Positions 2,711 to 60,032 are shown, counted from the stretch's first letter. The stretch: DNA of 64,000 bases from Candidatus Zapsychrus exili (GCA_030765585.1 JAVCCJ010000121.1:7233-71232), one strand, 5' to 3'. Notes: generated from the sequence alone by a model not told the origin. Made by a program: numbers and translations.

Positions 2711-4114
2711 GTGTTACAGGAGAGTTATATGACAAGTAAAAAGAATAGAAAGACCCCTAGAAGAAAAGTGCGGATTCCTGTTTTTGCTTGGGATGCAAGT
2801 GATGAGAAAAAAGAAGGAGAAGGAAAGACTCTTGTTACAAGAGACTTGAGTGCAAATGGTATAGGGTTTTATTCTAATGATATATCTACAGTTGGTACTG
2901 TTTTAAATGTTGATATGTATTTTCCTAAAAAAGAAACACCTGTATCTTGTCAAATTAAAATCACTTTTGTTAAAGCTTTAACACAATCTTCGAAATATAT
3001 TTTAGGTGCTTTTTTTGTTGATTTAAGCGCAGAAGATAAGGAGTTTATTGTAATGTCTTTAAAGGGTATGGATCTTTATTTGCTTTTAGAGAGCATGTTA
3101 AAAGGCGGTGCTTCAGATTTGCATTTAACTGTTGGTAGACCTCCTATGGTGCGACGAGATGGAAAAATTTTGGAAATGGCAGCAGAGCCTTTAGAAGAAG
3201 GACAAATAGAGGCAATGCTATATCCTCTATTGACTGATGAACAAATTAGCCTTTTTGAACAGGTACGTGAAATGGATTTTGCTTTTTCTCCTGATGTAAG
3301 CTCTAGATTTAGAGTTAACATGCATTGGCAAAAAGGATTTGTTGAGGCAGCAATAAGAAATATTCCAACAAAAATAGCTTCCTTTCAAGAGCTTGGGCTT
3401 CCCGAGAAACAGTTAGAAGATTTTTGTAGTGAACAGGCAGGACTTCTCTTGATTGCTGGAACAACAGGATCTGGAAAAACAACGACATTATCTTCTATAG
3501 TGAATTTTATTAACAATAATTACAAAAAAGTTATTATTACTGTGGAAGACCCTATTGAATATACCTTTAAAAGTAATAACAGTATTATAAAACAAAGAGA
3601 GCTGGGGAGCGATACTCGCTCATATGCTGAGGCCTTAAAAAGAGGTCTAAGGCAAGACCCTGATATTCTTTGTGTTGGAGAAATCTTAGACGGAGAGTGT
3701 TTGTCGGCAGCATTGCGAGCAGCCGAAACAGGACATTTGGTTATATCAACTGTTCATGCTCCTAATGCAATTTCTGCCATCGAAAGATGCGTAAACTTTT
3801 TTCCACCAGAACATTCAGCGTCTATTTGTCAGCAAATATCTTCTTGTCTTTCTTCTATATTGTTTCAGGTGCTTATTCCTAGAAAAGACCAAAAAGGGAG
3901 GTTGCTTGCTACAGAATTGTTGTTAAACAATCATGCTGTAAAAAATTTAATAAGAGAAGGCAGATTTAGTATGATGCCTAATGTAATGCAAACTGGTCGT
4001 AATGTTGGAATGTATACTATTGAAAATAGTTTAGAGGAGTTTTATAAAAAAGGTCTTATAGAAGAAAGCGTTATGTTAGATTATATAAATCAAGATTATA
4101 CTCAAAAGTTATAA
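2711..4114 (+). CDS. pilT: PilZ-domain / PilT-family retraction ATPase fusion
   Basis: N-terminal PilZ signatures (RRKVRIP ... DLSANGIGFYS). C-terminal PilT/GspE core: Walker A GTTGSGKTTTLSS, VEDPIEY, ILCVGEILD, TGHLVISTVHA. Confidence 0.8.
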   Translation: MLQESYMTSKKNRKTPRRKVRIPVFAWDASDEKKEGEGKTLVTRDLSANGIGFYSNDISTVGTVLNVDMYFPKKETPVSCQIKITFVKALTQSSKYILGAFFVDLSAEDKEFIVMSLKGMDLYLLLESMLKGGASDLHLTVGRPPMVRRDGKILEMAAEPLEEGQIEAMLYPLLTDEQISLFEQVREMDFAFSPDVSSRFRVNMHWQKGFVEAAIRNIPTKIASFQELGLPEKQLEDFCSEQAGLLLIAGTTGSGKTTTLSSIVNFINNNYKKVIITVEDPIEYTFKSNNSIIKQRELGSDTRSYAEALKRGLRQDPDILCVGEILDGECLSAALRAAETGHLVISTVHAPNAISAIERCVNFFPPEHSASICQQISSCLSSILFQVLIPRKDQKGRLLATELLLNNHAVKNLIREGRFSMMPNVMQTGRNVGMYTIENSLEEFYKKGLIEESVMLDYINQDYTQKL

Positions 4115-13647: not shown

Positions 13648-13922
13648 CCAAAGCCCCTACCTTTTTATTGACCACAAACATACCTATGTTATACTACAAG
13701 TAAGAAATGTCCAATCTGAATGAGCGCATAATTTACGCGACTAAAAGAAGCGCCAATTGCAGTGTGAATTTCTACTTGTTGGTAGACAGGCATCCCTGCG
13801 AAGGTACGTAAAGTCCCGTTGGGACCACGTCCCTTTACGGGCAGGGATCTAAATGGACTCCCGCCTACGCGGGAATGACATTTGATACATTATAAAATTC
13901 AAACATAAGCGAAAGTTCATAT

Positions 13923-26754: not shown

Positions 26755-26859
26755 AACAAAGATAAAAATAGTAGATAGTAGTTTGTAGCTAGTACAACTG
26801 TCCCTCTGTGGACTATCCCTCTGTTCTGGATTTTTATTAATTATTGAATTTGATACATG

Positions 26860-27135
26860 ACATTTTCTGCATATCGGTAGGCAGTATTTCGTGCGGACTG
26901 AGTGAACCCAAGGCTCTAGCGCAACGTTTTAATAAGAAATAGTTAGCAAAAATATTACAGCTTTAAAAAAGTCTGTCATTCCTGCCTTCGCAGGAATGAC
27001 AGCACGGATAGGAATGACAGCAAGTGTTGCACTAGCATCTTGAATCTGCGCTGTCTTTATTTCCTTTAAGGTTAGCCCTTACGCAAATTCTTTACTTGAT
27101 ACCTGACACTTGCTGCCTATCGGTAGGTAGGTACA
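26860..27135. repeat. ~37-bp imperfect direct repeats (ttgatacaYKgacaYttKctgcMtatcggtaggYagta) flanking a 190-bp segment that contains the perfect hairpin tgtcattcctgccttcgcaggaatgaca (26974..27001)
   Basis: Copies at 26860-26897 and 27092-27130. Related ctgcctaccggtag / cggtaggtaggcac motifs recur at 29056 and 29296. Confidence 0.5.
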
Positions 27136-27140
27136 TTCTT

Positions 27141-28010
27141 TTAGAATATTTTCGCAAATCCCTCGTCGATGAGTTCTTGGTTTAAATAGTATCCTTCTGT
27201 AAATATTTTATCGCGATTAGCTTCTGTTTTTGAATAAAAGATATGTGCTACATATCGGCCGTAAATATCTTGCTTGTTTGTTTTTATCATTACAAATGTA
27301 AGGCCACCGAGCAATGCATCTTCTGTGTATTTGCGCGCAGCTTCGCCCTCCTCGGTTCCCATCTCAGGGCAATCAATTGATGCTAGACGTATTCTTTGCT
27401 CGCGAGAAGTACAGAACCCTAAGTCAATGCGCGCAAGAATAGTATCGCCGTCAATTACACGCAAAACCTCTGCCTTGTAGACAAAACTTGCTTTAGTTGG
27501 ACGTTTTAAATCTGTTTTCTTTGTGATTATTTTTTCTTCGGCAGATGTCTCTTTAAAACTTTTTTCTTCGTAATATTTGTCTTTTATCTTTTGTGCAAGT
27601 TTGCGCTTACCCCATTTTTCTTGATTAGCTTCTTTAAAATAGAAATCACGCTTAGCATCATTTTCAATAGCGAGCAATTGTTTGTAATGATTCCAGCTTA
27701 AGCCGGAATCTTGAGGCATTCCATTTGGCCACAATTGAAAGAATTTTACCATTCTAGTAAGTAAACTGTATTCTATTTTGAGATCTTCTGCTATTTGTTT
27801 TAAGATGTTTTGTTTTTTTTCTAATCCTTGTTCTTGAGCAATTCTTTGGCCAAATTCCCAATATCCTTCTGCAATAATATTAGAGATGCTCTCTTTAACT
27901 TTATCTTTTGTATTATTAAGAATTGTTTTAAGGTCAGCAATAAGTTTTTCATATCCAATAATATTTGCTTTAGTATCTTTATCTGCCACTTTATTTCTCC
28001 TAATTTGCAT
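27141..28010 (-). CDS. Nuclease: YhcG/DUF1016 N-terminal domain fused to a staphylococcal-nuclease (SNase/thermonuclease)-like domain
   Basis: N-terminus IAEGYWEFGQRIAQEQ...LKQIAEDLKIEYSLLTRMVKFFQLWP (DUF1016_N pattern). C-terminus VIDGDTILARIDLGF...IRLASIDCPE...GRYVAHIF (SNase catalytic pattern). Confidence 0.7.
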   Translation of the reverse strand: MQIRRNKVADKDTKANIIGYEKLIADLKTILNNTKDKVKESISNIIAEGYWEFGQRIAQEQGLEKKQNILKQIAEDLKIEYSLLTRMVKFFQLWPNGMPQDSGLSWNHYKQLLAIENDAKRDFYFKEANQEKWGKRKLAQKIKDKYYEEKSFKETSAEEKIITKKTDLKRPTKASFVYKAEVLRVIDGDTILARIDLGFCTSREQRIRLASIDCPEMGTEEGEAARKYTEDALLGGLTFVMIKTNKQDIYGRYVAHIFYSKTEANRDKIFTEGYYLNQELIDEGFAKIF

Positions 28011-28247
28011 TTATTAGAGTTTTTAACAAAGAATCGATTGCCCCAATTGTTCCGCGGGGCAACTGGGGCAACTATTATTGTACTAAAAATGTGATAGCGC
28101 TGCAAGTAGAAATTTTAAAAAATGTTAGGGAAATAGGTGAGGGGCAGGTGAGGGTCAGACCCTTGTATTTTTGTCCCTTAGGTTTTCAGTGTTTTTAAGA
28201 GACAAGGTAGCGGCTACCTTTGGCGTGTTGGATGTTTTGTGCTAATG

Positions 28248-28730
28248 CTGGATATTAGAAAAACAAAGAGATGTTGTCATTGCGGGTCCTTTAGGGTGAA
28301 GCAATCTTAATGATATTTTATGGGATTCTACGGGGTCAGACCCCTTTTCTGTCCCCGCACTTGTTCCCCTGTTTCTTGTTTGCTCCTTGTAACGACATGT
28401 GTATTTGTCGTAAGATCGCAATGCGTAAGGTAAGGGTGAGAGCAAAGACTAAGGGGTAATGAGTATGTGTGAGGTTAATTTTGTTGGCTATGTAGCTGTT
28501 GCGTAGTTTTCTTAGGATAAAACCTTTTTGTTGACAGTGCTTTAGGTCTTTGCTTGAATAGTTTTTTTGCATTGATGTTTTATCAAAGCTTGATTTAGAG
28601 TCAATGGAAAAAGAAAGAGGTACTAGACCCTAGATTTTGGATACTTGATACTAGATGCTTGATGCTAGAAAAACAAAAAGATGTTGTCATTGCGAGCCCT
28701 TTAGGGTGAAGTAATTTCAATAAGATTAGA
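28248..28730. repeat. Two ~73-bp direct repeats, ~85% identical (agaaaaacaaaRagatgttgtcattgcgRGYcctttagggtgaagYaat...), 410 bp apart
   Basis: Copies at 28248-28320 and 28658-28730. Region GC is higher than the surrounding genes and has no long ORF. Confidence 0.55.
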
Positions 28731-29055
28731 TTATTTGTCATTAGGTTAGTAGGCCGCATCAAGTGTTGGATGACAAAAGAGGGTGGATAGGCTAGGGTTT
28801 ATCCCTATGTTTCTAAATGCTGCCATTATTAATGTCCAATCTGATTATGCTTTGTAACAAGAAGGTAGGACCATCCTGAGCAAAGCTAAGGATGACTTTT
28901 TTGTCATTTTTGCCTAGGGTCTGACCCTCGTACTTATAAATCAGATTGCTGGGCCGCTCGCCTCTGCGAAGCTTTACGGTTTCGCTACAGCGAAGCAGGG
29001 CAAATTCACATACATGACCTATTGAAATACTTGATGTAATCATAGAAGCATCAAG

Positions 29056-29314
29056 CGCAAATTTCTGCCTACCGGTAGTGTACTACTTCACAATTTTGGT
29101 AACACTTTAAAATTATTTAATAATTTTTTTTCCTTCTCCCCTTTGGGGAGAAGGCCTGTCTTTCTTTAGGAAGACAGAGATGAGGGGTAAGAATAAAAGC
29201 CCCTCACCTTAACCCTCTCCCCAAAGGGGAGAGGGAAAATTTCTTTTTGAAATCAATTATTTCTTCTACTAATTTGTTACCAAAATAGTGAAGAATTACA
29301 CGGTAGGTAGGCAC
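29056..29314. mobile_element. MITE-like foldback element (~260 bp) with ~40-bp imperfect terminal inverted repeats and two internal perfect hairpins
   Basis: Left end ctgcctaccggtagtgtactacttcacaattttggtaaca. Right end tgttaccaaaatagtgaagaattacacggtaggtaggcac (reverse-complement match ~80%). Internal hairpins ccttctcccctttggggagaagg and ccctctccccaaaggggagaggg. Central palindrome ctgtctttctttaggaagacag. Confidence 0.45.
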
Positions 29315-29476
29315 ACAGGCTAAGTTAATGTTCGCCTTGTCAATAAGTTGGCTTCATAAGTTAGGTGCTCGTTTAATGTCCAATCTGAGGGTTTAAAGCA
29401 AGTTTGAGTAATTTGTTGGAATGCTAGCTAAAGGGTTTGTTTTAAATGAGTTAAGATAAGAATTTTAAGCAAGATA

Positions 29477-29680
29477 AATGTCCAATCTGACTCTGTTTTG
29501 TGGCAAGAAAACAGAGTCATTTTGAGCGAAGCGAAGGATCTCTAAGGTGATTGTCATCTACGCAGGTATTTTTGTCTATTGGGCAGGTAGTGTGGCAAAG
29601 GGACAGGCGAGTAGAGGGATAAATCTCCGACTGTCCCTCTATGTTGCGGGACAGACGAGGGTCTGACCCTCCTGTTTTAG
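29477..29680. repeat. One member of a dispersed repeat family beginning AATGTCCAATCTGA; other starts at 13706, 28841, 29376
   Basis: Identical 14-mer at four places. The 28841 and 29477 copies share ~60 further bp (..ttgt..caagaa...gagcRaagcKaaggat..). All lie in intergenic space. Confidence 0.5.
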
Positions 29681-30254
29681 GCTGGAGCCTGACTCTTTTT
29701 GGGTTTTTGAGCAGAAAAATAGTAGTTTTTGAGGTAAAATGGACAGTTTTTGACAAGAAATAGGTTGTTTTTGATAAAAATGGATGTCATTGGATGAAAA
29801 TAAGTGATTTGGGCTAATATTTGGAGCTCAATAGCCTAAAAACTAGAAAAAATGGGAAATTTGTCAAGTGCTTGCCAAAAAAATATTTTTTTTAATGCTT
29901 TTGGACCCCCAAAAGGGGCTGAGTTGATGATCATTTTTTTGCTAGAATTGTGGCAATTTCTTTATTAGAACTATTATATTTCTCGTCGAGATTCTCATAA
30001 ATTGCTTAAAATTTTTTGCTTGACAAAATATTTATAATAAATATAATACTTAGTATTAATAATATAAAAAAAGCGCTTTCTTAAAACTTGCAAGAAAGGT
30101 CCTTTTATTGTCTCGACGAGGAAACGTATAAAAATTCAAGGAAATTAATAAAACATCAATTGTGTATTGTAACTCCTTTGTTTTCAACTAGTTAGAATAT
30201 AAAAAAAATATCTTCTGACCTTGTTGCAATACAATAATATGCTATACTTTCAAT

Positions 30255-51200: not shown

Positions 51201-54200
51201 GCTTCTAGACAAAGCTGGGAAGCCGCAGTTAGAGAATGGAATGATTTACTTGAGCTGGCTAAAACAAAGGGTGGTTCAGCTGAACTTCTTGCGCGTGTTG
51301 AAGAACAAATTGATCTTATGAGGGATCGTCAAACTAATGAGCCTGGTGAATATTTAAATGTAGTTGCTAATGGCAAGGTGTTGAATCAATTTGCTGATGT
51401 TTTAAAAGATGCAAATAAAGAGCAGAACAAAGAAGTTCGTCTAAGAAAATTAGAAGCAGGTCATAAAGGTATATTAATGGCCGCTAAGTATCTTGGTGAA
51501 GGAATTATACCAACACGTGTTACAGCATTCTTCAAAGCAGATAATATTAAGTCAGTTGCATCAAAGACAGATAAAAGTAAAGATATGACTTATGTTGAAT
51601 TTGTTAAAGGACTTACATCCGAAGAAAAGAATAAGTTTAATTTATCTATGTATGGTTTTGTTGTTGAATTAAAAGGTGAATATACTCTTGCTCGTCGTGG
51701 ACATCAATTAATATCCATGTTGGATGCTTTTGAGAATTTAAGCCAACAAGATATGGATAAACTTGGAGCGACAGTTGGAAGCCATACTCCATTTACAATC
51801 GCAGTTCAATTGGTTCAAGCAGATATAGTAGATATAAAAGAAGCTAAACAGTTAGCATCAATGGTTAATTTCTGGTTAGAGAATGCTGGTCAAACAGAGC
51901 ATATAGTTTCTTTAAGTGAAGAACAACAATCTAATTTCTTAAGCAAACTTAAAAAATTGACATTGCTAATATCTGATAAAACTTACACATTGCTTGCTTC
52001 TATTGGAGAAGAAATTGGAATAATTGATAATGTTGATATGCTTACTCAGATAAAGTCAAGATCTGATGCAATTACGCAGGCATTAGAAGGGGTAAAAGAT
52101 TTAGAAGCGCAAAAAGCAAAAGCAGGATTATTAGGAATTAGATTTAATGGAAAATTAAAAACTGCTGTTAAGACATTAGTTGAGCTGGTTAATCCTACAA
52201 TAGCGAAGATGGCATCTCTTCAAAATGAAATTGCATCTGATAAATTAGATATAGGCCCAATTGAATTTGCCGCTATTCTTCTAAATAGTGACGAGTTAAG
52301 AAACATTGAAGATATTAGTCGTGCAGAGAAGACATTAATATATATAGGAGAGACAATAGGCTATAAGCAATTAGATAAAAAACAAATAAATTTTGTTGCT
52401 TCTTTATTAGAAGAGTCGCTAGTATTACCTGCAGTTCTTTTAGTTGAAAGTGAAAGTATATCTGATGCTCAAAGAGAGCAACATATTAGAGTAGCTGCTA
52501 ATAAGATTGATCAAAACGCAAAGGTTAAGAAGCAAGACCTTCAAATGCTATTCTATCAAATGTTATCTAATCCTCATAAATTTGGTTTAACAGCATCAGC
52601 TGCAAAGAAAAAAGTAAGAAAGTTCAATTGGAAGCTAGATAAAGCAGATACATTTAAGAAGATAAGAACTACTTTAGGAAATGAACTTGCATCTAGATTA
52701 AATCCAAAATTAGGCTTCTTGGATAAGTTTAGTGTTTCTGATAATGAAGAGTTTAAGCTTGTTTCAGGTCGCATAGATTGGACAGATGAGCAAGCCGAGC
52801 AAGAATATAATAAATTAGCTGATAAAGAAAAAGAAATACAAGAAAAGACAGAAGAGCTTGTTCAGAAATTAAAAGAAAAACAAGAAGAGACGAAAGGCAA
52901 TGTTCAAGAATCAGTCAAAGAGGTTAAGAAAGCAAGCTTCTTAAACAGATTTAAGCCAACAATTGTTTTTGAAGGCAACAATATGGCAGAAAAGGTGCTT
53001 AAGGCAGGAATTAAAATAGGTTCTGTTACTTTAGGTTGGATGTTAGTGCCTTCGGTGTTGATTGCATCTCTTGTGTTTGGCACATCAGGTCTTGGGATTA
53101 TTGGAATGGTATTGGTTAGTGCCACTATTCATGAAATAGGTCATATTGTTGCAGCTAGAATATTAGGAGGAAGCCAAACTTATCAAGGAATGGGCGTATA
53201 TGGTCCAATAGCACAGGCTACGCTTAATACGAGAGGACTTTCTAAAAATGCTATAAGAATTATTGCAGCTATTGGTCCTATAACAAATATATTGGTTGGT
53301 ACTGTGGCCTTAGCTTTTGGAGTTGATCCATTTACTGCATATCAAGGAATAGAATTCTGGGGCGTTCCTGTTAATTTAGTTACTATAAACCTTGTTTTCT
53401 TAGCTGCGGTAAATCTTCTACCAATACCTGCGTTTGATGGTCTTACAGTTATAACAGGTAAAAACACTAAGACATCTATGGCTTCAGGGTCTGGAAAAGC
53501 TTTCTATTCAAGTATTCCACTATATGAATTTGTGTTATATGTTGCTTCTGTTCTGTCATTGCGAGGAGTAAAGCGACGCGGCAATCTAGAAGAAGAGATT
53601 GCTTTGCAAAAACCGCTCGCAATGACCGATAATGAGAAACATACTCAACAGTCAGCTATATTTGAGTCACAAGACAAGATTGAGGCAATTAATTTGAACA
53701 TTGAGCTTGAAAAGGCTGTAATGCCTGAAATTCCAGCTATGCCAGATAGAAGTATGCCGTTTGATCCATTAGGTATACCAGTAGCTCCGATGATTCCTCT
53801 TGGAGCACCAGCTTTAATGCTGTTAGGGTCTGTTTCAGGCAGTGGTCCAGGTGGAAAAGCACCTGTTAGTATGGTAGAACAACAAAGAGAATTTGGTCAA
53901 AATGAAGCAGATATTAAAGTAGCACAAGCTCAGACAGGTAGCGAGGTAGGGTTCTTATTAGCGTTTGCTCTCGATCTTAAGAGTCGAATGAATTTTAGTA
54001 GTACCGGTCTGAGTCCAAATGCGATAAGCGCTGCCATCCTTTTCCGCAAAGGATCAGGCAGAGCAAATGTAGTAGCGCGGATAATAGTAAATGTAGTACA
54101 TGTTGTAGCAAATGCAGTAAACGTAGTAAGTAGCAATGGTTCTAAGCCGTTGATATCTAGTGACTTCGGTCATAAAGGTAAAAATAACGGAGAGCCTGGT

Positions 54201-57200: not shown

Positions 57201-60032
57201 ACTGATGCTGGTGCTGCACTTGATGGAGAAGATTCAGTTCTTCGTGATATTGGTGGTGCTCAAGTTCATAAGTTAGTTGATGCATTTGAAGGTGAAAATG
57301 GCGCAATAGCAGTTGGTAATTATTTATTACCTCAATATACCGCAGATGGCGTAAATATTCCTCAAGCTATTCACAACTGGGTTGGCGAGACAATTGGAGT
57401 TGAGACAATTTCTTTAGATTTTTATAATATGATAATTGCAGCGAATTCAGCAACAGAGTATAAAGATTATAAATCAACTAGAAAAGCCTTCGATGCTTAT
57501 ATTAACAAAGGACAAGATTCAATATCAGCTGATCTTAGATTTGGAAAACAAACAGCAGTTATAGTAAAAGATGAAAATAATAATTTTGTTAAGATATCAG
57601 TTGATGGCGTTCAAACACTAGGCAATTATTCAGCAAGCGTTAATATAGAAGAATTAGCAAATCAAAATGTAATCTTTATTGTGTCTGAAGAAGATGTTAA
57701 AGCCGGCACATTTGAAGATAAGTTAGATGTAATATTTACAAAGCTAGCTGAAAACAGAGGCGTTGATCAGATAGCAATAAATGCTTTTAACAAAATTACT
57801 CTTGTAGATTTAGAAAGATATCCACCAGCAGGTATTAAATTAAGAAACTATGCAGAACAACAACAAGCAGCTCAAAGAGCAATGCAAGATACTAAAGAAG
57901 CTACAGATGGTGGATACAATGGATACACAGTTGCACAAGCAAGAGAGCAAATAAAGAAATATGAAGCATTAGGAATTACAATTGAAACTGTTAATCTTAA
58001 AAATGAAGTTAGTATAAAGGCTGCAATTGATAAAGCATTAGCTTTCTTAACAACACAAGGAAGAATAGATTATACTCGCGGACCACCAACAGTTAACCTA
58101 GTCAATTCTTCTGATATAACTTTTGCAGCATTTTATGAAGTAGATGACAACACCCTATATATAGAGAAGACAGTACTTAGCGATTTAGCATATGATTTAA
58201 CTTCAGTATTTGTTCATGAGCTTAATGGTGACACTCACGAAGAGAATATAATAGCTGAGAAAGCTTATAAATTAGTACAACAACAAGAAATAGAAAAAGC
58301 AACCGATGAAAGAGCAAAGGTAATTAATAGTGCAATTGAAAGAGCAATAAAGACAGGCGATTTTGATAAAGCTGAAGATATATACAGAGACGATCTTATT
58401 ATTAGATACATAAACGATAAAGATATTTTAACTGATAAAGAAAAAGAAGATATAAGGGCTATTTTAGCTCGTGAGCAACAAAAAAGAGCAAACAAAGTAA
58501 GATCAGAAAGCGGAATACAAGTTAGTAACAATATAGAAGTTGATTCTTACGGAAATGTAGCATCGTTTATTTCGCCATTACCTACAGGCGCATTACAACT
58601 TACAAGCAACGGAATATTTGGCGCAAGCAGAGCAAGAGAAGATGGGAGTCGTTATCTTCACGAAGGTGCAGATTTTAGAGCTGTTGTGGGAACAAAGACA
58701 TTCTCTATATTAGATAATGCTGAAGTTACTCATGTGGCTAATTTTAATACAGGCCGCGCTGGTAAATATGTAACAATTTCAAGCCAAATTGGTGAACATA
58801 AAGTACAAGTATCTTATATGCATTTAAGTTCTGTTGAAGTTGAGTTAGGTCAAGCTTTATTATTAGGCGATATTATTGGTTTAACTGGAAAAACAGGAAA
58901 TGCTAATAATACTGACGAACCTCATCTACATTTAGCGATTAAAATTGATGGTAAGCTTGTTGATCCTGTTAAATTATTTAATGGAGATGTTACATTTGCA
59001 TCGGATACAAGAAACGTAGCACCTATCTTTGGATTACAAATAAGTAATGCAGCATTCGATACTTACAAAGCTCATGATGCTGATGGCTTTTTATCTAAAT
59101 ATTTTAGTTCACGAGCAGATTTTGAGAAATTCGTTTTAGCTATTATTAGATGGGAAAGCAGTTTTGATGCTGATGCGACTAGTAGCGTTGGAGCAAGAGG
59201 TCTAATGCAAATTATGCCTGGTACTTGGGCTGAAGAAGTAGCAGAGCTAGGATATAATTGGACGGCTGCTGATATTACAAATCCATTTAAGAATGTACGC
59301 ATTGGTTCACGTTATCTTGTTGAGCAATTAAGAGAATTTGGTTCTATAGAACTTGCGCTAGCAGCTTATAATCGCGGACCTGGAAAAGTAGAAGATGCGA
59401 TAGCGGCTGGTTTCGCAGACGGCATACCTACAAGCAATGGAACAACGCATGATTATATAGAAAGAATTAAGAAAGTTTATAATGGTGGAATTTTATTAAC
59501 TAATTTCATTGCTAGTCCAGTTGATGCATTAACTAAATGGCTTGCGATAGAAGAGTATAGAAACAATCCAAGATCTTGGATAGAAAAAGTAGTAAGCGAA
59601 GAAGAGAATGGCTCAAACGTTATATTCCCAGTTGTTGATGTAATTATAACTGATAGAGTAGGTGAAAAAGAGAAACAAGCTCATTTAGTTGGATCACATA
59701 ATCTTGATGTGATTACAGATGAACAAGTTTATAACAAAGTTAAAACAATACTTGGGCAAAAAGTTCTTATGGATAAACAAGGTTCTCAAGCCGGAGTTGT
59801 TCTTGTTATAAGTAAGCGAGCATTGTTTAGTGGTGAAAGTAATGTAAGGGCTATAGTAAAAGATTTATTCTCAGAGCTTATAGGAGAAATGAAGATGCAA
59901 CTATATAAAATAGTCATTTGTTTATTTTCTCTAAATCTCCTGTTTACTTATATAGAGAAAATACTTCTGAAGAAAAATATAATTTATCAGAACTTCTTGG
60001 ATTTATTGTTCCTGATGAAGACGGTGATATAG
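30255..60032 (+). CDS. Giant multi-domain membrane protein (9,925 aa as called; probably the N-terminal ~88% of a protein of more than 11,200 aa). Contains C39-like peptidase, OmpA-like, two SecA-type DEAD ATPase modules, M50 protease, M23 peptidase, SLT transglycosylase and several TM clusters
   Basis: Single uninterrupted frame of 29.8 kb with coherent codon usage. The domain motifs are listed individually in the findings. Confidence 0.85.
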   Translation: MKSAAEQNREPEDDRKADSSIGNMSENTAFTHQHSYVPTNRTFLNSEDCSADAQNISNTQPQEEPIPHKSRFKSWIKTVALIIILVFVPEQISWAFSYNPLVLWKDKATVASQYLGDGNTIAAENQMTEEQIVSLRVSESVSHFLKQLQNKNAQQIQLQLPNPHKSKLVKDNQYNILINTDLAFNESNIAEIATWLREPAIHPLNCGVYALNDILANYDVKLSLEEISVMSLLVDLINDIVRPGEPKLKTSLYAINKITEAYGINLKAAKLAPADIFDLEPPFIANFDDEHFVTVTKVDDTSVYYNDIGRASSSSRLDFLDQVTGFVLAPELEAQDDVKFEYVPDAMQAFIWGSKWHGNLDNLPGLYSWGDVAIGAAFQVVGLFTGGLASSVLSLGAGSFLGSLTTAIALSECYDAETGAADQGCLDTMFVLNIVGTSAISAGSGALNADSFDLGAFAGDFAKGAVVGLGQGLIMLYVGKLLNDLLEDWDAPDALKQAIIGAVSSVVATTAMGLVVDGLDAALKEMGVGEGAKVDLSLKSVYAGDTQVKVEPEWAVWKATAMGNVLSGLNKVVTFIGKYTGISWALNQLNKGWNKLVKGMIGSNSGAAKTLTATGKAFNGIKKGVNYALNGKFSPVTYVIKALAVIPRTVRNLMSEGKKVWGVKHLVFALEQHNFLRQMTVLAVRYILSEGKILGIDDGNKENNGDDGEDRGIAFDSFLSQAIGMGVGMFYDHVSIGLDNRDNLTKRTENEIAQKKAEAEGLDKNDPEYGDFIQNNIVSMTGMSLEDIFAKRAEFGLSENSDFAQYQGKRTSAFIAILGKSVASVLLAKHYDKKECARVDCNETERLGEDPNRDRIGLLKFRATQFLIGGLIEGGIAILTESNRRPDGAELTQTDKKVELDKKIINKLANKDADKLENALNTSMMLVNEKGELIDNLNATEKTSNEMLLAAKKKYEQAYSEGGGANGEGIEKVLAAAGLSKKESKEYLKQRAKELDKTNDVSKLFLLFNGNFVAKTIQSMYSANGNSPYGIVGYDDGVAVYDQRGFVRADEDASPTEKLISSIAARSSYINEMVGMYGGMTLTKRLMVREQNEKMEADMRRTNEVSSAAPISEEELARQIGAAQMRANVKTLDVIHNSNNYFLDAINQSLATALFSPQDSPILHALDSLAFDFVDASIEQQAQAAWEDESKKPDTNKLAFLQNKRQELRDEVAMNSDDKFGYSPSDSVDVSIEQQAQDAWAKEGKKPDTNKLEFLQNKRKELHEEAAMNSPWLGLGMDYRYLASEQIGEGIDSNKITYKMSENLVFNSGKGILLGTSLEKKGDLLEYGLEKLNVYYQDEVGKGDYIGEGSDRDFSGTIVRDISGLSEIDRRELGFDPEKMKIATENDGDKEIVAVGLAQKLRQTDRKEDVSALNEEKKGKIITKIDGTTRLVFGYEAEHLAEQGKKYDMTVDVGKFTVNEETGDRIHLSAQRQAAPDAQLSDSWVVTRQDFNAATPKDITATTMFFASQGEVIDEQGNVLEQYVASISSEDCVTGCTDPKKTWYVNRSLFAKEGDKKISDMDDLGFDTNLKTFANKDVKTEIAALKKDYKRIDDSTEKDENRLAVVNTIIDHAIEDKESNQIAKELYGFAKMVEEHKVASSLEIGAYTNNKEGSNQEGEELYLGIARYNTDDKGNVKDTSTVLISEPQIYDKNGAVATTNFIYQTEQTSAFNVGDSAVYGKVVDGKETLVSAEEIDTYKDKKGIKGDVKSIAVVRQVAKGDIDLSSAVEMAKGFDKDGVDKFGDTPENFNGKDYMSFVAASTEDGQTAVLEASKSKLVQGYSEIKSSVKVHYDHDSYKLEAKAKKDLDSAAATLNDNDQKNIIINGRTDSSGTNQYNVKLSLNRALAAKDYLMEQGISEDRIIIRALGEGEADQSIAESIRSDKEIGRKDRNSSFEIVEKSPLGDSKITFRVDKEGFVKRASTNFYTAGLDNEGSSIVYDLAPKASLLADALILLAADVADALGPEENKIQEIVTSNATSAKAAQLDGALVAIVPDIRAYELGKNDLLHIVDGEIIAPNEIRFDDYAPDPTSTPKRDSKGNVVAGSFIKDTVATKQGDGTYAYSSADGKVGKAASLTVDQLVVTKFGVVGVDEAAIVSDKPLILGNNSQWLASSSDATLEVAFGSKTTQALDSKGNIVGPVEEVNYNGGYRIDESKAIVLRSKVGEGALLGSIYINNEGAPKVLDKEAFEEESLEDNKKYVSATTQSETVGSLSVAGISTESKWTATPVVDGKINKYAADEDGVLESALVGNRIVSLHGNAKENNMTFKDMKDKANVGFISKSGRMILTPNNNNISGGWSKDANDQLSFNVGIKDTKKMNGSEEGKGTALGLQQENVLVYNKGIGNILYQGSEQTSVDPVTGLVGANRFVTMNLTGDMGVNQGTVLASKVDLAQGNIEGQVRNHKDLDAPSIFSAKLNTFDIKDSEIILKVSQELGDVSQLPVAADFAYSKEGKGEAPVQTPANLAALKGVENNPNVLMLEVSKEAGQDLTKVLGTPTSSVLNFAFSTDGLKFNPKAEGSVYSNFDRVSVLSGVEAPTVILKREATPTESNSTPAIQFIADANNNVKMQWKGIWNIQRDSAYTNHSTKWMSADGKSEAPLVLNTTIIGEEITASAGWNDTAVWNWAAGAPKMRGTITDKDGNSVSSLGIQRVDGAGAGWTIQARGSKDGSTLVAPNHVNVEENGYVDPDAKKDVDKTVSNKFFKLPQAQSYDVYKDGSREDGLVEVRLNQGFPEGVETPADFEIKSGQSINLLVQDHDGLSSVSTTENMVGTDVRKMIYHAKAPEQEKAAVEKEVSEQETDLNKFSMPIENFVAKQDNTRLAKVNIPVIIDNFITPEPNVDKITVQEWRVERAPETMVVENPYSVLTLDGSRAIERDVWGSKVGTIPIKETVSFEPGDYQSFGDVNKTVLITKTAATSYNIDYSNSDKITATKSSEGLNFVDYSGEMSFIKGRTSKEIEQIKENDITEWFPNATEGKEKVSVQMDSDAITSEAMQIKRYDPKTGAHVTDRYLAGMTAIKGNDGIIRSQFTTEASLYNADTKEIGNAGNLLYDAAASFLLDSVETDKGKKAVFKFVPEGQDPTVFTATSKGGIETVNTIYTDPATIKEANEANSSGALLPEAIAQTLDPNNTGSIQRVYQYQGKKLVNEYFAVTRAKEDSSKVEKFYVDGKYANPNNANELKSLIASELNLDLKETKTSTLQDFSYSKTIEDDAEVVYVSPQGKVYLRMVTGRTIIETPNSYSSSSTSTSEQHDVFAYDLVTGDVEEVDVEKTFVDVVTDKDGAKRYALKYLVPESRTRYSIGLPISYKPAGVQGIEFKDEDGKEIWADINYIKSGQLNGVGEEKQFVAVSIQDAGWSKNKRNRIIDLSTGREITREGFIETPEGGKWDLNRYKGKIVEMVKAKGFWGDVGDVAWNGLRGEGKETYVKNMLMDWGMSYASAGALDVSNPSVAGVVTTALMFTGVGSGLGLIGKGAKAGSTAARVYSISRAALKTGLIFGGIDTAAYVGIGALTGQDLNFSDGLAAFAGGVKMGATMTLGITGLGAVSGRIANSINAVNGVAGTGKGFKFVSKTYKGFGKMAEWKQAAILNGSSGAAVNVTRGMVANYYENGGELDYSLRSFAIDATAGAIISVALGGVGSKVMKGSFNTKQLLGNNMIHYGLVGLGGETVSTGIFSDKEMTWTRAAGSFAMGAIGGLVFRSTWIPEMMGVKPAEIIGETAKVTEGVTEGATSLFRNIKNPLKLTKAAQGVESGATVLNFSKLRTIGTLTGLGVGAGAGMAAMDARVHAKQDARKAGFKEGTKAFDSFVSKETSNNFRSWKTAKYMGAGALAANVMFFGRRAIQMKGRAKLLGTHSNKRITLPLIADEPHLIASLSLLGAADFAMIMPAWGALDSVIYTGLTGGNLEEGFYHSFQQKDVDGNDLGVFSNLAVHSIGGAKLGARLGPVLGIAQMPLSALGKKSALAPKSISKFSANKSSGLSISKILSSPTAHSMPVTVAQLATVEVLAEKVLENTYFKTAAENKADTLYNSHLEETKIMTGAYPTTTKAQFREEYAKNKIKEDAGQIAFASLLFKPSSMPGAEPETGGKGNKGSTAEAKIETPPNKPSDNALSADAQIKLSTKQTNIDQAPVAKPEKSMLSRMTTAVDYIGSKFKGHNNNILRQKIGTQSLEQNVIITSSSKQYVKAAKEARRRGTESKDKEYRDLDEIDQVFNMSMDSLRESIEADGRTKFKVKPKQLALVYSVIEHAIKGEKLLAIEPVSGGKTVLTAAIVDSLAKKGKTVVVIVPSGKLVDQYMNSALFENGRFTTPQTRNNGKDAVPEALKKGMVYFMTDAQAKDFVLHKNKTGENFFKDAQGFYDEAHNLFTMSDKIIGGGSERAAKIVAENSSQAKRLQRQYDTDTELARITVDLVREVGGEVEYLVENKNSDRMSHQFKEQATYRNGKNVWAVKDANGKLSIVKKGTAGAEILRPKDIVLERFNKSVKEKKLIRFKSDHSKALLEDFAGLAKSAFQEARIRTKNKQGNLESAPLDAYTGEARWGEIFSDPTGRNTKARALVALERVLALEREGNVNLESYIKSAINSTEHKARGADFLDMFDNVTLLTGTAGEVKGMAKMKNINMVQFRPEYTLKDIGPENVTFETSGKSKIDMIVDIIRDEINLAKKAGDNFVLITTNSREAGVLGARKARQTQNLKDKGYKVEYVSDAKLAERIKEINNSNAKEKIVIVTQVIEGISVEAKGSGVVMETAVLSAADTTQALARMNTFAEAKDSSRTKAKAKVKLHIDDHLILTAEKQKILEAQGKLDQARKTNSSDAIKNAEANLDLIWREMMHSLTEFKTNQGLATISTTVVEGVKSKVAKESVQQQLRSTTHGILSDIRQEAHKDIALDYMNKTGKTSAQISLSDNKGFEIFSSSKEGDEISVDNINNVGLVATEEIELIHGAKLKAGQTLDYETGFVYEAPQNEFDIKDFSQIKSEYLPVGVISITREDVNNPKANYNPVVNTVVNGKKAAAIELSDLGKNTLLDRQIVYAENSDGKIDQVAYRVKPIISNVTVGAALSAININDDSYEIDNDGFAIVPIETFNKAFSKENALDNSVFDGIGFKFAQDITIHEGFKEKRSDAITGRTRKSKNKVAKDALKLSIQKTVETPEIAIALPDGQGGTKTQRIKMDDLRELQTRMASSKSPDSDVNLYFADYDSEESKAKTNKALNNLVRFSNPTTQDDKDWVASLNTEEVVHYDTAAKSLKTRGISPVEFAMRFQHQMGGKNFGGHTGSGGQDALGNKRDQQNVYVNESATHIFDYYQDIERDKGFEAASDTEKMMETVLHEQIGFANRDFSHYQNVEVRRVWLKATEAVKQMKENNVDTVELQLVDGSGYEIYEAIKENGKTIGAQPIKLVAQNSDVKLRHLNTTLAKGETLDYKASSKTASLDTGSIKYKSVDNQEDKIVSKLKVGQDIVNITDPNLNGHTKLAQRAVADVEDAASILNKIDLSLNGTRKEFALDRHIKTIEQLRNTNNVFISKNAGAMSTDDGRMIVGRLDNNNNRLVLNSEANGEMADIYLRGQKIVENVPLRVAAIISEVDRKHDAGFEVYKAKNDAPAQSKASDNALTADTFHPANITTRKQIQGMMRDGVDQALMTLRAGGYDSKAKIMNFTKANLPDSFNKRVKDFAMRARVRATTARERAQKDTFGSVIHASSGRVSTLEWGLHEAGYKTDEAMVAKIADIVAGDPRRVEGDIAVYDFSDVKGTTRLDNYELHVDTTRNFDDKSMLSIFADAPQGQTIAWLGENIAVVNTDISVGGESELARSWSKIEKKLGNQNFDEQLAMVMQFDIIDLNKLVALAVEDANTEEAILARAKGLSVDAPIYVAVMRDEWVFFAVVDGKLVGEPQKAEDISNGLVLMSKESIPGHVVAKFSEKYVVAQSVLNPETSIPTALGKGQWAPIEGQLASMSATAMLSVVPSVAKHEKIVVVQSDAGQAEKTAIEFALAIPEKQIYVVNHTKTNQWFVKVTVADGEANISNVFITADKLENGVVVVDAAMLSEAAFDILRANGAIISKAAMPDSFGGEDNVSAKAVKAVFNTDYRQKTIDQRLKTKEAAEEPVIVVPVAPRNDAIDMPAMVPAATIPVTVPMLMSSGVGDNSPNVELADAAMTSGPGNNSPNYKDIIAKSEELIADSEKTIAISQKIRAASEEIRANSRAIRKKIATSGSDDAMLAAAKTDDIMQYLPYDRKIENDVLVKMKQDVGRIVDIINETNRKIEPEFSVRDDQVKMAEALIEGKVVVAENAAGKTLAKFIAGLANIVNGRQATILTRDENDSAKWILEAPEEGFGANYSQMLAATMKEYELESSGIVDLDGLMKRYDDALKKRRTIVANKEINEIKGQILRALQSKDMLKIVSINARGHMPNRFLDDDLILQGIKSIKDDGDTILDEADDLLLLETTYIQSQSQSVKKNSNLRKIVSQAKKIFDQVKIGTDEEDAIKVAASIQDFEKLNKANKKAVWYSQGSGLIGAPDLLISDAVYESFKEGTLPTMIEGVIRGKIEEIGTRLAADLNKGELVPVTRTGELQSDMIFSQIPYKVAQTLKINEILKARGDSQLKLNNITVTGDTVRENPISEMLQGKGRVVGATANKAGAEYIIQAKTGSTEGIVTIGEESNVFKQAALPTKNYRHVDITGQAGGLVDQLASMAEKSLADNKGTLIFTSDHVQLRKIAEDLKKRFPNTEVGVIDEDTKPEQIEKYRNEIGTHKGNSTPRIVVSLPRVAKQVSFKGNLDVIVSDGASWPKADLTHAVNRNNRSEKLELRLGRSYVLVDKEALNKKFEFVRNLVPEIKGLSKADDVNKLVDEIEKAGAGDTLALSKKHRLVAEFLQAQQRSSSHKHTILTLFRNNRQTEPMQDLYDSRVGSDKKIVQEILFKERAGLYGNTMQKLHDNPFTGEEWVREASRQSWEAAVREWNDLLELAKTKGGSAELLARVEEQIDLMRDRQTNEPGEYLNVVANGKVLNQFADVLKDANKEQNKEVRLRKLEAGHKGILMAAKYLGEGIIPTRVTAFFKADNIKSVASKTDKSKDMTYVEFVKGLTSEEKNKFNLSMYGFVVELKGEYTLARRGHQLISMLDAFENLSQQDMDKLGATVGSHTPFTIAVQLVQADIVDIKEAKQLASMVNFWLENAGQTEHIVSLSEEQQSNFLSKLKKLTLLISDKTYTLLASIGEEIGIIDNVDMLTQIKSRSDAITQALEGVKDLEAQKAKAGLLGIRFNGKLKTAVKTLVELVNPTIAKMASLQNEIASDKLDIGPIEFAAILLNSDELRNIEDISRAEKTLIYIGETIGYKQLDKKQINFVASLLEESLVLPAVLLVESESISDAQREQHIRVAANKIDQNAKVKKQDLQMLFYQMLSNPHKFGLTASAAKKKVRKFNWKLDKADTFKKIRTTLGNELASRLNPKLGFLDKFSVSDNEEFKLVSGRIDWTDEQAEQEYNKLADKEKEIQEKTEELVQKLKEKQEETKGNVQESVKEVKKASFLNRFKPTIVFEGNNMAEKVLKAGIKIGSVTLGWMLVPSVLIASLVFGTSGLGIIGMVLVSATIHEIGHIVAARILGGSQTYQGMGVYGPIAQATLNTRGLSKNAIRIIAAIGPITNILVGTVALAFGVDPFTAYQGIEFWGVPVNLVTINLVFLAAVNLLPIPAFDGLTVITGKNTKTSMASGSGKAFYSSIPLYEFVLYVASVLSLRGVKRRGNLEEEIALQKPLAMTDNEKHTQQSAIFESQDKIEAINLNIELEKAVMPEIPAMPDRSMPFDPLGIPVAPMIPLGAPALMLLGSVSGSGPGGKAPVSMVEQQREFGQNEADIKVAQAQTGSEVGFLLAFALDLKSRMNFSSTGLSPNAISAAILFRKGSGRANVVARIIVNVVHVVANAVNVVSSNGSKPLISSDFGHKGKNNGEPGSRSVSKSRAIEVKAGSKAVVAKLVRNTLVSMIEYFKQVAVRVKLAMKVQDDRTETRLRESRTTTVAKAVNVTNEAEVNAVKAIVIEEAQVVSVAQVASASNVKATVAEGLESVSRSALLRSMISSSATMAGIVLFTIRDEVTQGVGELYAQVVFRGVKNVSSETSLEYNDAQGASNIKIRIVSLAKNIYRSLRVREESGDAEPGASPVYKFVPTINTQGNQALGVPVFLSANIITIGSLNSIHFLLGAAAIAVMLAMLAYAIYRGAPNTIHVNSIKSNTDNSLINKARAYIRARVTYKAVLFGSLNHNESQATDSKQGGTLWSASIQSIQEVLAKIQKAYKSHILSNIQTQAALSQPQITKTRIEQKSILLDKMNVFMNAVDLKALGMSFKAKTSDFLQSLLKKLSATKMYHVIQLIVQAYLTKKEVIKNSNEVEVVSSVAGGFSAPLLTKQFVEQIANNGEEKYLVQASNGVEVVSSVAGDFLTTLLAGINRFKVAFATVAILLLNTAVKAQSAIADTAAVVVDSVAGGLNTTAAVTDLSSPTSEFFAQIGNITSESVLIMIAAALIASVVTWFVIYVASKKLAVNISRSGALTLGFAVAFSGLKLFTIAAPIIKEVFATTTSLGMLEHFATMAPVVLIPVFALMLGISLVAWNIQRIYKSKTTAIASPYNFNTLSKAEKQVYKKEFKKQYKPLRMSFKEFGRFVSARREIVISLTVIGAIVGVLTSTSTLLTMVSAGVQGALVGFVSVYLLSVLWNFFFGYVWKNTQFVEFVEDNRGRFSSDETIIQEVKNLEEKLSNTGVLENSIYVIKDLLISLTLRFPVTGGIIQFVIGRGFLALAGSYVAGPITALISPSITTTSILGFWPAVVSFLKGIYLDTTIGGFIRLALMVIFLNLKKIPAYYNMTFKLFTGEAINTFNLKSHLRELHKKLPLHILAAFVSVASIVLAPAFGIIYLANISAEANARDVNKYAKVIGDMGKDFWVGMWNMWLISMEIGLITDAGAALDGEDSVLRDIGGAQVHKLVDAFEGENGAIAVGNYLLPQYTADGVNIPQAIHNWVGETIGVETISLDFYNMIIAANSATEYKDYKSTRKAFDAYINKGQDSISADLRFGKQTAVIVKDENNNFVKISVDGVQTLGNYSASVNIEELANQNVIFIVSEEDVKAGTFEDKLDVIFTKLAENRGVDQIAINAFNKITLVDLERYPPAGIKLRNYAEQQQAAQRAMQDTKEATDGGYNGYTVAQAREQIKKYEALGITIETVNLKNEVSIKAAIDKALAFLTTQGRIDYTRGPPTVNLVNSSDITFAAFYEVDDNTLYIEKTVLSDLAYDLTSVFVHELNGDTHEENIIAEKAYKLVQQQEIEKATDERAKVINSAIERAIKTGDFDKAEDIYRDDLIIRYINDKDILTDKEKEDIRAILAREQQKRANKVRSESGIQVSNNIEVDSYGNVASFISPLPTGALQLTSNGIFGASRAREDGSRYLHEGADFRAVVGTKTFSILDNAEVTHVANFNTGRAGKYVTISSQIGEHKVQVSYMHLSSVEVELGQALLLGDIIGLTGKTGNANNTDEPHLHLAIKIDGKLVDPVKLFNGDVTFASDTRNVAPIFGLQISNAAFDTYKAHDADGFLSKYFSSRADFEKFVLAIIRWESSFDADATSSVGARGLMQIMPGTWAEEVAELGYNWTAADITNPFKNVRIGSRYLVEQLREFGSIELALAAYNRGPGKVEDAIAAGFADGIPTSNGTTHDYIERIKKVYNGGILLTNFIASPVDALTKWLAIEEYRNNPRSWIEKVVSEEENGSNVIFPVVDVIITDRVGEKEKQAHLVGSHNLDVITDEQVYNKVKTILGQKVLMDKQGSQAGVVLVISKRALFSGESNVRAIVKDLFSELIGEMKMQLYKIVICLFSLNLLFTYIEKILLKKNIIYQNFLDLLFLMKTVI
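30790..31200 (+). other. Peptidase C39-like (papain-fold Cys peptidase) domain of the giant protein
   Basis: PLNCGVYALNDILANYDVKLSLEEISV ... DDEHFVTVTKVDDTSVYYNDIG parallels the C39 pattern (..CGxAxL..vsleEl.. / ..NHFVVLykid..vyiaDP). Confidence 0.5.
33781..34065 (+). repeat. In-frame tandem duplication (2 x ~123 nt, period 162 nt = 54 aa) inside the giant gene
   Basis: SIEQQAQAAWEDESKKPDTNKLAFLQNKRQELRDEVAMNS / SIEQQAQDAWAKEGKKPDTNKLEFLQNKRKELHEEAAMNS, ~85% nt identity. Confidence 0.8.
35740..36070 (+). other. OmpA-like peptidoglycan-binding domain of the giant protein
   Basis: IIINGRTDSSGTNQYNVKLSLNRALAAKDYLMEQGISEDRIIIRALGEGEA matches the OmpA_C pattern (GHTDxxGsxxYNxxLSxxRAxaVxxYL...Gi...ri...GxGE). 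Confidence 0.65.
43080..44700 (+). other. First SecA-type DEAD/SF2 ATPase module of the giant protein
   Basis: KPKQLALVYSVIEHAIKGEKLLAIEPVSGGKTVLTAAIVDSLAKKGKTVVVIVPSGKLVDQY (SecA motor pattern Q-L-iGg..L..Gki-aEM-kTGEGKTL-a-l-ayLnAL-GkgVHvVTvND-La-rD). DEAH-like box FYDEAHNLF. Later TTQALARMNTF. Confidence 0.6.
49150..50830 (+). other. Second SecA-type DEAD ATPase module of the giant protein
   Basis: DDQVKMAEALIEGKVVVAENAAGKTLAKFIAGLANIVNGRQATILTRDENDSAK. DEAD box TILDEADDLLL. Motif-VI-like LTHAVNRNNRSEKLELRLGRSYVLV. Confidence 0.65.
53000..53470 (+). other. Peptidase M50 (site-2 protease-like) intramembrane metalloprotease domain of the giant protein
   Basis: HExxH in a TM helix (VSATIHEIGHIVAARILGG) and NLLPIPAFDGLTV (S2P pattern NLLPIPxLDGG), flanked by hydrophobic helices. 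Confidence 0.6.
58560..58990 (+). other. Peptidase M23 (LytM-type peptidoglycan endopeptidase) domain of the giant protein
   Basis: YLHEGADFRAVVGT (HxxxD), GKYVTISSQIGEHKVQVSYMHL, TGNANNTDEPHLHLAIKIDGKLVDP (HxH). Confidence 0.7.
59060..59470 (+). other. SLT-type lytic transglycosylase domain of the giant protein
   Basis: AIIRWESSFDADATSSVGARGLMQIMPGTWAE (catalytic E-S plus GLMQ), ..NVRIGSRYL.., LALAAYNRGPGKV (AYNxG). Confidence 0.7.

Follow-up and report, generated by a model that had tools for sequence, protein, structure and literature searches.

The stretch of DNA analysed here (the window) is 64,000 nt long and comes from a metagenome-assembled genome of Candidatus Zapsychrus exili, a member of the phylum Omnitrophota. 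It is AT-rich (35% GC) and contains a tight-adherence (Tad) pilus cluster, with genes for RcpC, a secretin, a CpaE/F-type ATPase, Flp-like pilins, TadB and TadC, followed by a giant gene, a 9,925-aa open reading frame (ORF) with its ATG at 30255 and a C39 peptidase domain near its N-terminus. The window's TadC is 100% identical to a protein listed by NCBI for this genome, whose name also occurs in PMC8542988. Our subject is the 3,500-nt repeat-dense island between the two (26755-30254), which is the spacer from tadC to the giant gene because the Tad cluster lies upstream of it and the C39 ORF downstream. A secretion or pilus cluster preceding a giant gene, and an N-terminal C39 peptidase domain in the giant protein, have been published for Omnitrophota (bioRxiv 10.1101/2023.11.21.568195; Nat Microbiol PMC10066038), and the gene arrangement of the window is identical to the "type II secretion-like locus upstream of giant genes" of the Omnitrophota archaeovorins. 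The arrangement is already published; the new part is a phylum-wide 14-nt motif in the spacer. We consider it probable, though by no means certain, that the island is a control region, swollen by insertions, which separates the Tad operon from an archaeovorin-type giant gene.

An earlier reading of the bare sequence (the original prediction) described the island as a gene-poor collection of repeats and proposed that it was decayed mobile DNA, a recombination hot-spot or a long structured regulatory leader for the giant gene. All of the elements that it listed are present and non-random, although some coordinates and descriptions had to be corrected (Table 1). The island is indeed gene-poor: besides one nuclease gene, no ORF in it matches Pfam (eight small ORFs were searched), a tRNA/tmRNA scan found nothing, and an Rfam search, covering the whole window at the gathering threshold and the island at E < 5, gave only chance-level hairpin matches. 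The claim of locally higher GC holds weakly for the island as a whole (0.366, compared with 0.353 for the window), with 0.40 reached only in 28011-29700 and 0.278 in the last 550 nt.

For comparison, we took 80 Omnitrophota loci around TadC. In 55 related loci, tadC is followed by a same-strand orthologue of the giant gene, which together with the window makes 56 spacers. The gene-free gaps between tadC and the giant gene are 252-3,497 nt in the relatives, and the window's gap is the longest. The two closest relatives retrieved, both among the 55, are L002 and L003: their TadC is 72-74% identical, each has 1.7-1.9 kb of gene-free sequence ahead of its C39 giant gene, and versions of the 14-mer turn up repeatedly in either gap. 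Between these two and the window, the spacers can be aligned only over the motif and the core promoter (about 140 nt).

Among 8-mers ranked de novo by comparing the 56 gaps with the remaining locus sequence, AATGTCCA came first; it is found in 44 of the 56 loci and has 75 copies in 70 kb of gap sequence versus 33 in 930 kb elsewhere. There are 113 sites with no more than two mismatches to the 14-nt sequence AATGTCCAWTCTGA, and a position weight matrix (PWM) built from these sites has 152 matches in the gaps (2.16 per kb) versus 62 outside them (0.067 per kb), an enrichment of about 32-fold, with at least one site in 54 of the 56 spacers. Other intergenic DNA of the loci has 0.14 matches per kb, about 15 times fewer than the spacers, and dinucleotide shuffles of the gaps gave 1.9 +/- 1.2 matches versus 147 observed. 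About three quarters of the matches outside the spacer fall between -8 and about +900 of the assigned start of the giant ORF. The original prediction had reasoned that repeats confined to this window would favour neutral debris, and the AATGTCCAATCTGA family, to which the motif corresponds, is not confined in this way.

The motif is also more conserved than its surroundings. In five groups of relatives, motif columns are 45-87% identical versus 23-57% for other spacer columns, and the motif occurs in the spacers of genomes whose TadC is only 50-74% identical. The three copies of the AATGTCCAATCTGA family that had been noticed in the island are there (0.04 expected by chance); all are perfect 14-mers on the + strand and are among the best-scoring sites of the data set. 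Their 14 nt are identical in all three copies, whereas the flanks of the 66-nt repeat that holds two of them are only 76% identical.

Motif placing was assessed relative to a promoter that is itself conserved. The sequence TGnTATAYT (mostly TATACT) occurs in forward orientation in 51 of the 56 spacers, and alignment on it brings out a conserved cTTGnc -35 element and an upstream A-tract. In the window this is promoter P2, whose -10 hexamer ends 6 nt before the ATG, as it does in L002. The transcript is therefore predicted to be leaderless or nearly so, and the giant-gene mRNA of this genome would, if P2 is the promoter in use, start at or close to its first codon. An additional upstream promoter, P1, has a perfect sigma-70 consensus, and L002 has a similar TTGACA promoter at the same distance; boxes similar to those which bracket P1 (CTCGTCGAG/CTCGACGAG) recur in relatives' spacers. 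The AT-rich promoter region (27.8% GC) opens with tandem 21-nt repeats, which were not among the elements listed in the original prediction and which could be curved DNA or another binding array.

Upstream of the predicted start site there are 116 motif sites, 106 of them at -1000..-200, with a bias to + orientation, and a further 53 lie at +100..+600, with a bias to - orientation. The upstream cluster sits mainly at -600..-200 and the downstream cluster mainly at +100..+400, which in many relatives is over the start codon. Sites close to the promoter are scarce, with five at -200..-100, none at -100..0 and one at 0..+100. One downstream site spans codons 2-7 in about 15 loci (ATG-GAn-GAC-AGA-TTG-GAC-A, encoding M-D/E-D-R-L/M-D). 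Some sites form head-to-tail tandems (14-17-nt spacing), others palindromic pairs in which the spacer varies. In most loci that have an inserted gene, the motif cluster remains near the promoter and the insert is on the tadC side.

A candidate operator should be a short site that is enriched in the non-coding DNA ahead of orthologous genes, both over the other sequence of the loci and over shuffles, more conserved than the spacer around it and constrained in its placing relative to the predicted promoter; a true operator would in addition be bound by a regulator. The motif has the first three properties. If the island were instead neutral debris, i.e. decayed mobile DNA plus local duplications, the AATGTCCAATCTGA family would be just another repeat family. 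Much of the island is what one would expect of debris: most of it lacks a counterpart in the two closest relatives, a metagenome scan found the core of its 73-nt repeats nowhere else, its small ORFs match no family, Rfam is empty, and the GGGTCWGACCC palindrome occurs in no related locus. However, a motif that is in nearly every orthologous spacer, at the densities given above, that is placed relative to a conserved promoter, conserved above its surroundings and invariant in three island copies with diverged flanks is not explained in this way. We therefore regard debris as an improbable account of the island, and it is contradicted for the motif and promoter only.

The motif could also act on the transcript or the elongating polymerase, either as a recruitment site of the ops/RfaH, LoaP or UpxY type, which would render transcription of a 30-160-kb gene processive, or as paired RNA segments which mask the start codon. 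Many relatives do have sites in the leader, over codons 2-7, and 70-460 nt into the ORF, once transcribed, upstream + copies could base-pair with downstream - copies, and giant genes plausibly need anti-termination, judging from the biology of RfaH and LoaP. Against this, the largest cluster (the 116 sites) is upstream of the conserved promoter, no site in the window is downstream of either promoter, and the motif occurs in both orientations and as closely spaced tandem direct repeats, rather than as the single-orientation element in a transcribed leader that an ops/RfaH-, LoaP- or UpxY-type site would be. Covariation does not help either: palindromic motif pairs show no compensatory changes (for example in L011 and L043), and the variant AATTTCC, which is in every site of L073 and L082, also affects the direct repeats. 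We consider a transcript-level role unlikely overall; an ops-like role is possible for the relatives' downstream sites, but not for the upstream cluster or the window. Because the cluster stays with the promoter, its columns are conserved, the AATTTCC variants are genome-wide and compensatory changes are missing, we infer that one DNA-binding factor, rather than RNA pairing, recognises the motif.

In favour of a long structured 5' leader, or of non-coding RNAs encoded in the island that regulate the giant gene, one can point to the island's length and richness in hairpins, above all a foldback with z = -12. But the ATG is 6 nt from P2 and 208 nt from P1, a gene on the other strand and its terminator (z = -7) intervene, as do nine + strand terminator-like hairpins, Rfam has no match, the 73-nt repeats fold no better than shuffles, and the sequence is not conserved in the closest relatives. 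The position of the conserved promoter, the empty Rfam search and the intervening gene and terminators thus leave the leader unsupported as RNA, and we think it very unlikely; a regulatory role is nevertheless strongly supported for the AATGTCCAATCTGA family.

Some relatives do have leaders. In several clades, the sequence between the conserved promoter and the ATG contains repeated AGCCACGG boxes and a hairpin that, with its T-run, resembles a terminator (L023, L026, L027, L051, L053, L061, L067, L075, L077, L078, L080 and L081), and in five of these (L067, L075, L077, L080 and L081) the motif adjoins the -35 element (AATGTCCAATaCTTGACA). Such hairpins and boxes may provide attenuation-type control in those genomes.

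Motif copies that flank a promoter could also be the inverted repeats of an invertible promoter (an inverton), which would make the giant surface protein phase-variable. The relatives' + upstream and - downstream clusters do flank a promoter segment of 0.4-0.9 kb. On the other hand, in every one of the 51 spacers where the TATACT-type promoter occurs it faces the giant gene (what matches in reverse are six TATATT/TATAAT variants), many arrays consist of direct repeats in tandem, the window has no recombinase gene, and contig ends within 1.5 kb of tadC show no asymmetry (16 downstream, 13 upstream). In the window, inversion is impossible because all three sites have the same orientation. An inverton is accordingly something we would be surprised to find here.

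Our preferred reading of the island as a control region with insertions has two layers. The first, which would be the conserved and functional one, is the array of 14-nt AATGTCCAWTCTGA sites plus the extended -10 (TGnTATACT) sigma-70 promoter. The sites are putative operators for a DNA-binding regulator of the giant gene, which possibly bridges the upstream and downstream clusters and, by way of the copy at 13706, may also reach the tad cluster; of the two clusters, this genome would have kept just the upstream one, as three perfect copies. The second layer comprises the nuclease gene together with the hairpins (four GGGTCWGACCC copies and those of the CTGCCTAYCGGTAGG type), both 73-nt repeats and the 248-nt foldback, all of which would be lineage-specific filler, mostly between tadC and the operator cluster, and whose insertion would have stretched the spacer to 3.5 kb here. 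Going further, AATGTCCAWTCTGA might be the operator of a master regulator which switches an attack apparatus (the giant archaeovorin-type protein, perhaps with the Tad pilus) on or off, by looping or through a repressive nucleoprotein complex. We put this forward tentatively, at somewhat short of an even chance.

Table 1. Features of the tadC-to-giant-gene island and the additional motif copy in the tad cluster (positions counted from the first base of the window)
Feature	Position	Strand	Remarks
Fourth exact copy of the 14-mer	13706-13719	+	In a 275-nt intergenic region in the tad cluster, between a DUF192 gene and a 660-aa ORF
tadC 3' flank, convergent-terminator zone	26755-27140		Holds the next three features
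ACTGTCCCTCTGTG / ACTATCCCTCTGTT tandem pair	26797-26825		15-nt spacing, 42 nt past the tadC stop
35-nt repeats	26850-26884, 27096-27130		Each ends in a CTGCMTATCGGTAGG hairpin
Hairpin with 13-bp stem, then T-run on - strand	26973-27002		Fold -25.2 kcal/mol, z = -7.05
Nuclease gene	27141-28010	-	289 aa; DUF1016_N (YhcG-like N-terminal domain) and staphylococcal-nuclease (SNase) domain (Pfam)
GGGTCAGACCC copy 1	28152-28162	+	Terminator-like on + strand: stem 28148-28166, then ATTTTTGT; weak fold, z = -0.5
73-nt repeat copy A	28245-28317	+	Holds GTCATTGCG...GCAATC half-element; z = 0.16, no notable fold
GGGTCAGACCC copy 2	28333-28343	+	GGGGTCAGACCCC, then TTTTCTGT
73-nt repeat copy B	28655-28727	+	85% identity to copy A
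Operator-like site 1, AATGTCCAATCTGA	28831-28844	+	PWM 25.9 bits; opens a 66-nt repeat (28828-28893) common with site 3
GGGTCAGACCC copy 3	28917-28927	-	Reads GGGTCTGACCC on + strand
Foldback	29066-29313		248 nt; 44-nt arms, 80% complementary; inner inverted repeat 29128-29154 / 29213-29239
Operator-like site 2	29375-29388	+	PWM 24.8 bits
Operator-like site 3	29477-29490	+	PWM 23.8 bits; then 12-bp hairpin 29483-29524 and GTCATTTTGAGCGAAGCGAAGGATC element
GGGTCAGACCC copy 4	29659-29669	-	Terminator-like on + strand: 29657-29671, then CTGTTTTA
Tandem 21-nt repeats, GTTTTTGA-N13	29703-29790	+	About 4 units; phased T-tracts two helical turns apart, upstream of P1
P1-bracketing boxes	29982-30120		CTCGTCGAG at 29982; its reverse complement CTCGACGAG at 30112; AAGCGCTTTC at 30071
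P1	30020-30047	+	Perfect sigma-70 consensus, TTGACA-16-TATAAT, 12/12; 208 nt 5' of the ATG
P2, phylum-conserved	30221-30248	+	TTGTTG-16-TGcTATACT, extended -10

Several points weigh against our reading of the island. The PWM is circular, having been trained on the spacers that it scores, so it is the k-mer ranking and the fixed-consensus count that constitute independent evidence. Every promoter is a prediction, and so are the giant-gene starts, for which the first ATG of the ORF was taken. In the window, the operator-like sites are 780-1,430 nt from P2, which is farther than in most relatives, and the window is without a downstream motif cluster; because of this distance and the missing cluster, looping between bracketing sites cannot operate here as it maybe does elsewhere. 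Many relatives' near-start sites lie in the transcribed or coding region, where a role at the level of RNA or elongation is possible. Among the proteins encoded in the window, we found no DNA-binding regulator. Finally, a metagenome scan for the 24-nt core of the 73-nt repeat returned only one 1,164-nt contig, identical to window positions 28045-29208, and such a single contig indicates very low coverage, making the scan uninformative about dispersal.

The proposed control region can be compared with better-known systems. In the gal, ara, deo and lac operons of E. coli, operator arrays bracket the promoter and act by DNA looping. The Omnitrophota spacers are like these in having one short site in two clusters around a sigma-70 promoter, in both orientations and with a nearly site-free core. 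However, the Omnitrophota site is asymmetric and often arranged head to tail, the clusters are far more widely separated (0.4-0.9 kb), the window has the upstream cluster only, and the regulator is putative. The PprAB regulon of Pseudomonas aeruginosa, where Flp/Tad pili and the large adhesin BapA are both turned on by a single response regulator, is alike in the idea of joint control over a Tad pilus and a very large surface protein: in 56 loci the giant gene comes after the tad operon, and the window's tad cluster has an extra exact site. There is no sequence relation between the two, though, and sites within tad clusters are only sporadic.

The region around that extra site (13,648-13,922) holds the operator copy followed by strongly self-complementary sequence (CATCCCTGC...GCAGGGATC and GTCATTCCCGCGTAGGCGGGAG). 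It also contains a TTGATACAT motif, which is seen in the island too, and it has no Rfam match at the gathering threshold. We considered a fixed second site in tad clusters and rejected it: the extra sites are differently placed in different genomes. Upstream of the tad cluster, the stretch 2,711-4,114 encodes a fusion of a PilZ domain with a T2SSE-type ATPase, which hints at control of the pilus machinery by cyclic di-GMP.

The remainder of the island is where the view of it as decayed mobile DNA is supported: the GGGTCWGACCC palindromes, the 73-nt repeats, the foldback and the nuclease gene are all without a general counterpart in relatives, but the AATGTCCAATCTGA family does not belong with them. 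The idea of a recombination hot-spot is also borne out, in the sense of a site that tolerates insertions. According to Pfam, the spacers of other genomes contain an IS5-like transposase (L010), IS200-like Y1 transposases (L015 and L016), AAA_14/DUF4143 ATPases (L017, L022, L042 and L068), a YdjC-like membrane protein (L049), a radical-SAM protein (L056) and a DUF1016_N-SNase nuclease (L020). Since different cargo is present at an orthologous spacer, this spacer must tolerate and accumulate insertions.

The lone nuclease gene that had been reported in the island has a DUF1016_N domain and an SNase domain, the first of which matches the PADLOC candidate-defence family PDC-S02; NCBIfam gave only sub-threshold nuclease matches. 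Its homologue in L020, the only one in a relative's spacer, is 33% identical and in reverse orientation. The hairpin at 26973-27002 is likely the terminator of this gene. On the - strand, both 73-nt repeats contain a promoter-like sequence directed toward it (28,252-28,280 and 28,662-28,690; ATGACA-17-TAATAT/TAGCAT, 9/12 matches), and copy A could supply the gene's promoter.

The palindrome GGGTCAGACCC occurs in four exact copies, as the original prediction had it, versus 0.01 in shuffles of the window, although the positions that it gave (28162, 28335, 28920 and 29661) were 2-10 nt above the true starts. The element spans 11 nt and its centre base is free (GGGTCWGACCC); two of the four copies accordingly read GGGTCTGACCC on the + strand, and three of the four extend to GAGGGTCAGACCCT. 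Within the window it is confined to the island, and there is no copy in 1.2 Mb of relatives' loci. In or beside the tadC-giant spacers of L002 (9,776 and 10,249), L064 (11,509) and L017 (4,858) there is a palindrome, CCTGCCTGCCGGCAGGCAGG, in which A/T of the window's CTGCCTACCGGTAGGCAG is replaced symmetrically by G/C, leaving the hairpin intact.

Several other repeats were found as described. The two 73-nt direct repeats have a 46-nt core with 93% identity, and neither they nor the foldback has a detectable counterpart in the L002 and L003 spacers. The ctgcNtaYcggtagg motifs occur as CTGCNTAYCGGTAGG at 26867 and 27113, and at 29065 with one mismatch. Just past tadC, the ACTGTCCCTCTGTG/ACTATCCCTCTGTT tandem pair, which has a third copy of the same type at 29,630-29,643, mimics the relatives' operator tandems in placing and spacing; its sequence resembles the operator minus one base and scores below 7 bits. 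These copies may be decayed or variant operator sites.

The MITE-like foldback (MITE: miniature inverted-repeat transposable element), also confirmed, is situated between operator-like sites 1 and 2. Folded as DNA it reaches -66 kcal/mol (z = -12.2); copies of the CTGCCTACCGGTAGG hairpin motif form the tips, and CTCCCCnnnGGGGAG hairpins are found in the inner arms. Terminal inverted repeats, small size and the lack of an ORF with a family match are what one expects of a MITE, but its flanks (...aaatttc / element / cacaggc...) contain no direct repeat, i.e. no target-site duplication, and the 64-kb window has no second copy. This non-coding element can also be likened to Rickettsia palindromic elements, together with two shorter palindromic elements. 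The first, GTCATCCTGAGG...CTCAGGATGAC (also written GTCATCCTGAG...CTCAGGATGAC), is 66 nt long and is present in L065 but missing from the same place in its near-twin L062, so the class of GTCAT...ATGAC hairpins to which it belongs is mobile. The second, a 72-nt member of that class, lies in frame in the giant ORF at about 53,556-53,628 (GTCATTGCGAG...GCAATCT / AGATTGC...CTCGCAATGAC) and encodes ...SLRGVKRRGNLEEEIALQKPLAMT..., resembling the Rickettsia elements that occur in frame.

The short palindromes recall other families as well. Repetitive extragenic palindromic (REP) sequences and bacterial interspersed mosaic elements (BIMEs), which go with REP-associated tyrosine transposases (RAYTs; IS200-like, Y1), and the Neisseria intergenic mosaic elements (NIMEs) with dRS3 are intergenic palindromes or mosaic repeats, and REP/BIME elements are defined by a high genome-wide copy number. 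The island is similar in having short, GC-rich, imperfect palindromes (GGGTCWGACCC in four copies, CTGCMTAYCGGTAGG in three to four) beside a surface-protein gene, and the Y1 transposase genes of the L015 and L016 spacers add to the likeness with REP/BIME. The window has no RAYT gene, and within it the palindromes are confined to the island.

We counted ten terminator-like hairpins in the island, where 2.9 +/- 1.6 would be expected; nine are on the + strand, and three of the four GGGTCWGACCC copies are among them. GC-rich hairpins with + strand T-runs may incidentally insulate the giant-gene promoter from upstream read-through, which we offer as a suggestion only because the stems are weak.

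At the far end of the giant gene (the 59,890-64,000 region), the last approximately 40 residues of the ORF resemble out-of-frame sequence, and another frame opens at 59,909, has no nearby ATG and runs past the window end. There is probably a frameshift near the end of the ORF, either an assembly error or real, and the gene may extend beyond about 11,300 aa.

Text searches of the literature for the motif sequence found only unrelated papers, mostly eukaryotic, and those for the GTCATTGCGAG / GTCATCCTGAGC hairpin sequences likewise found only unrelated papers. The main texts of three papers on Omnitrophota giant genes (10.1101/2023.11.21.568195, PMC10066038 and 10.64898/2026.06.07.730766) do not contain the words "intergenic" or "promoter", and "motif" is absent from that of 10.64898/2026.06.07.730766, the only one searched for that word. 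In the searchable literature, we found nothing on giant-gene control in Omnitrophota.

Giant genes of 30 to >150 kb beside Tad/type II-like secretion clusters are a signature of predatory or parasitic Omnitrophota. Three predictions (a phylum-wide 14-nt site, a conserved promoter and, in this genome, a leaderless start) make the regulation of these genes testable. The analysis also sets the functional part of the island apart from its eye-catching palindromes, which are apparently lineage-specific filler, and a spacer that tolerates insertions is useful to know of when annotating such loci. If AATGTCCAWTCTGA is the operator of a master regulator, it would provide a handle on that regulator and its regulon in a phylum with essentially no genetics.

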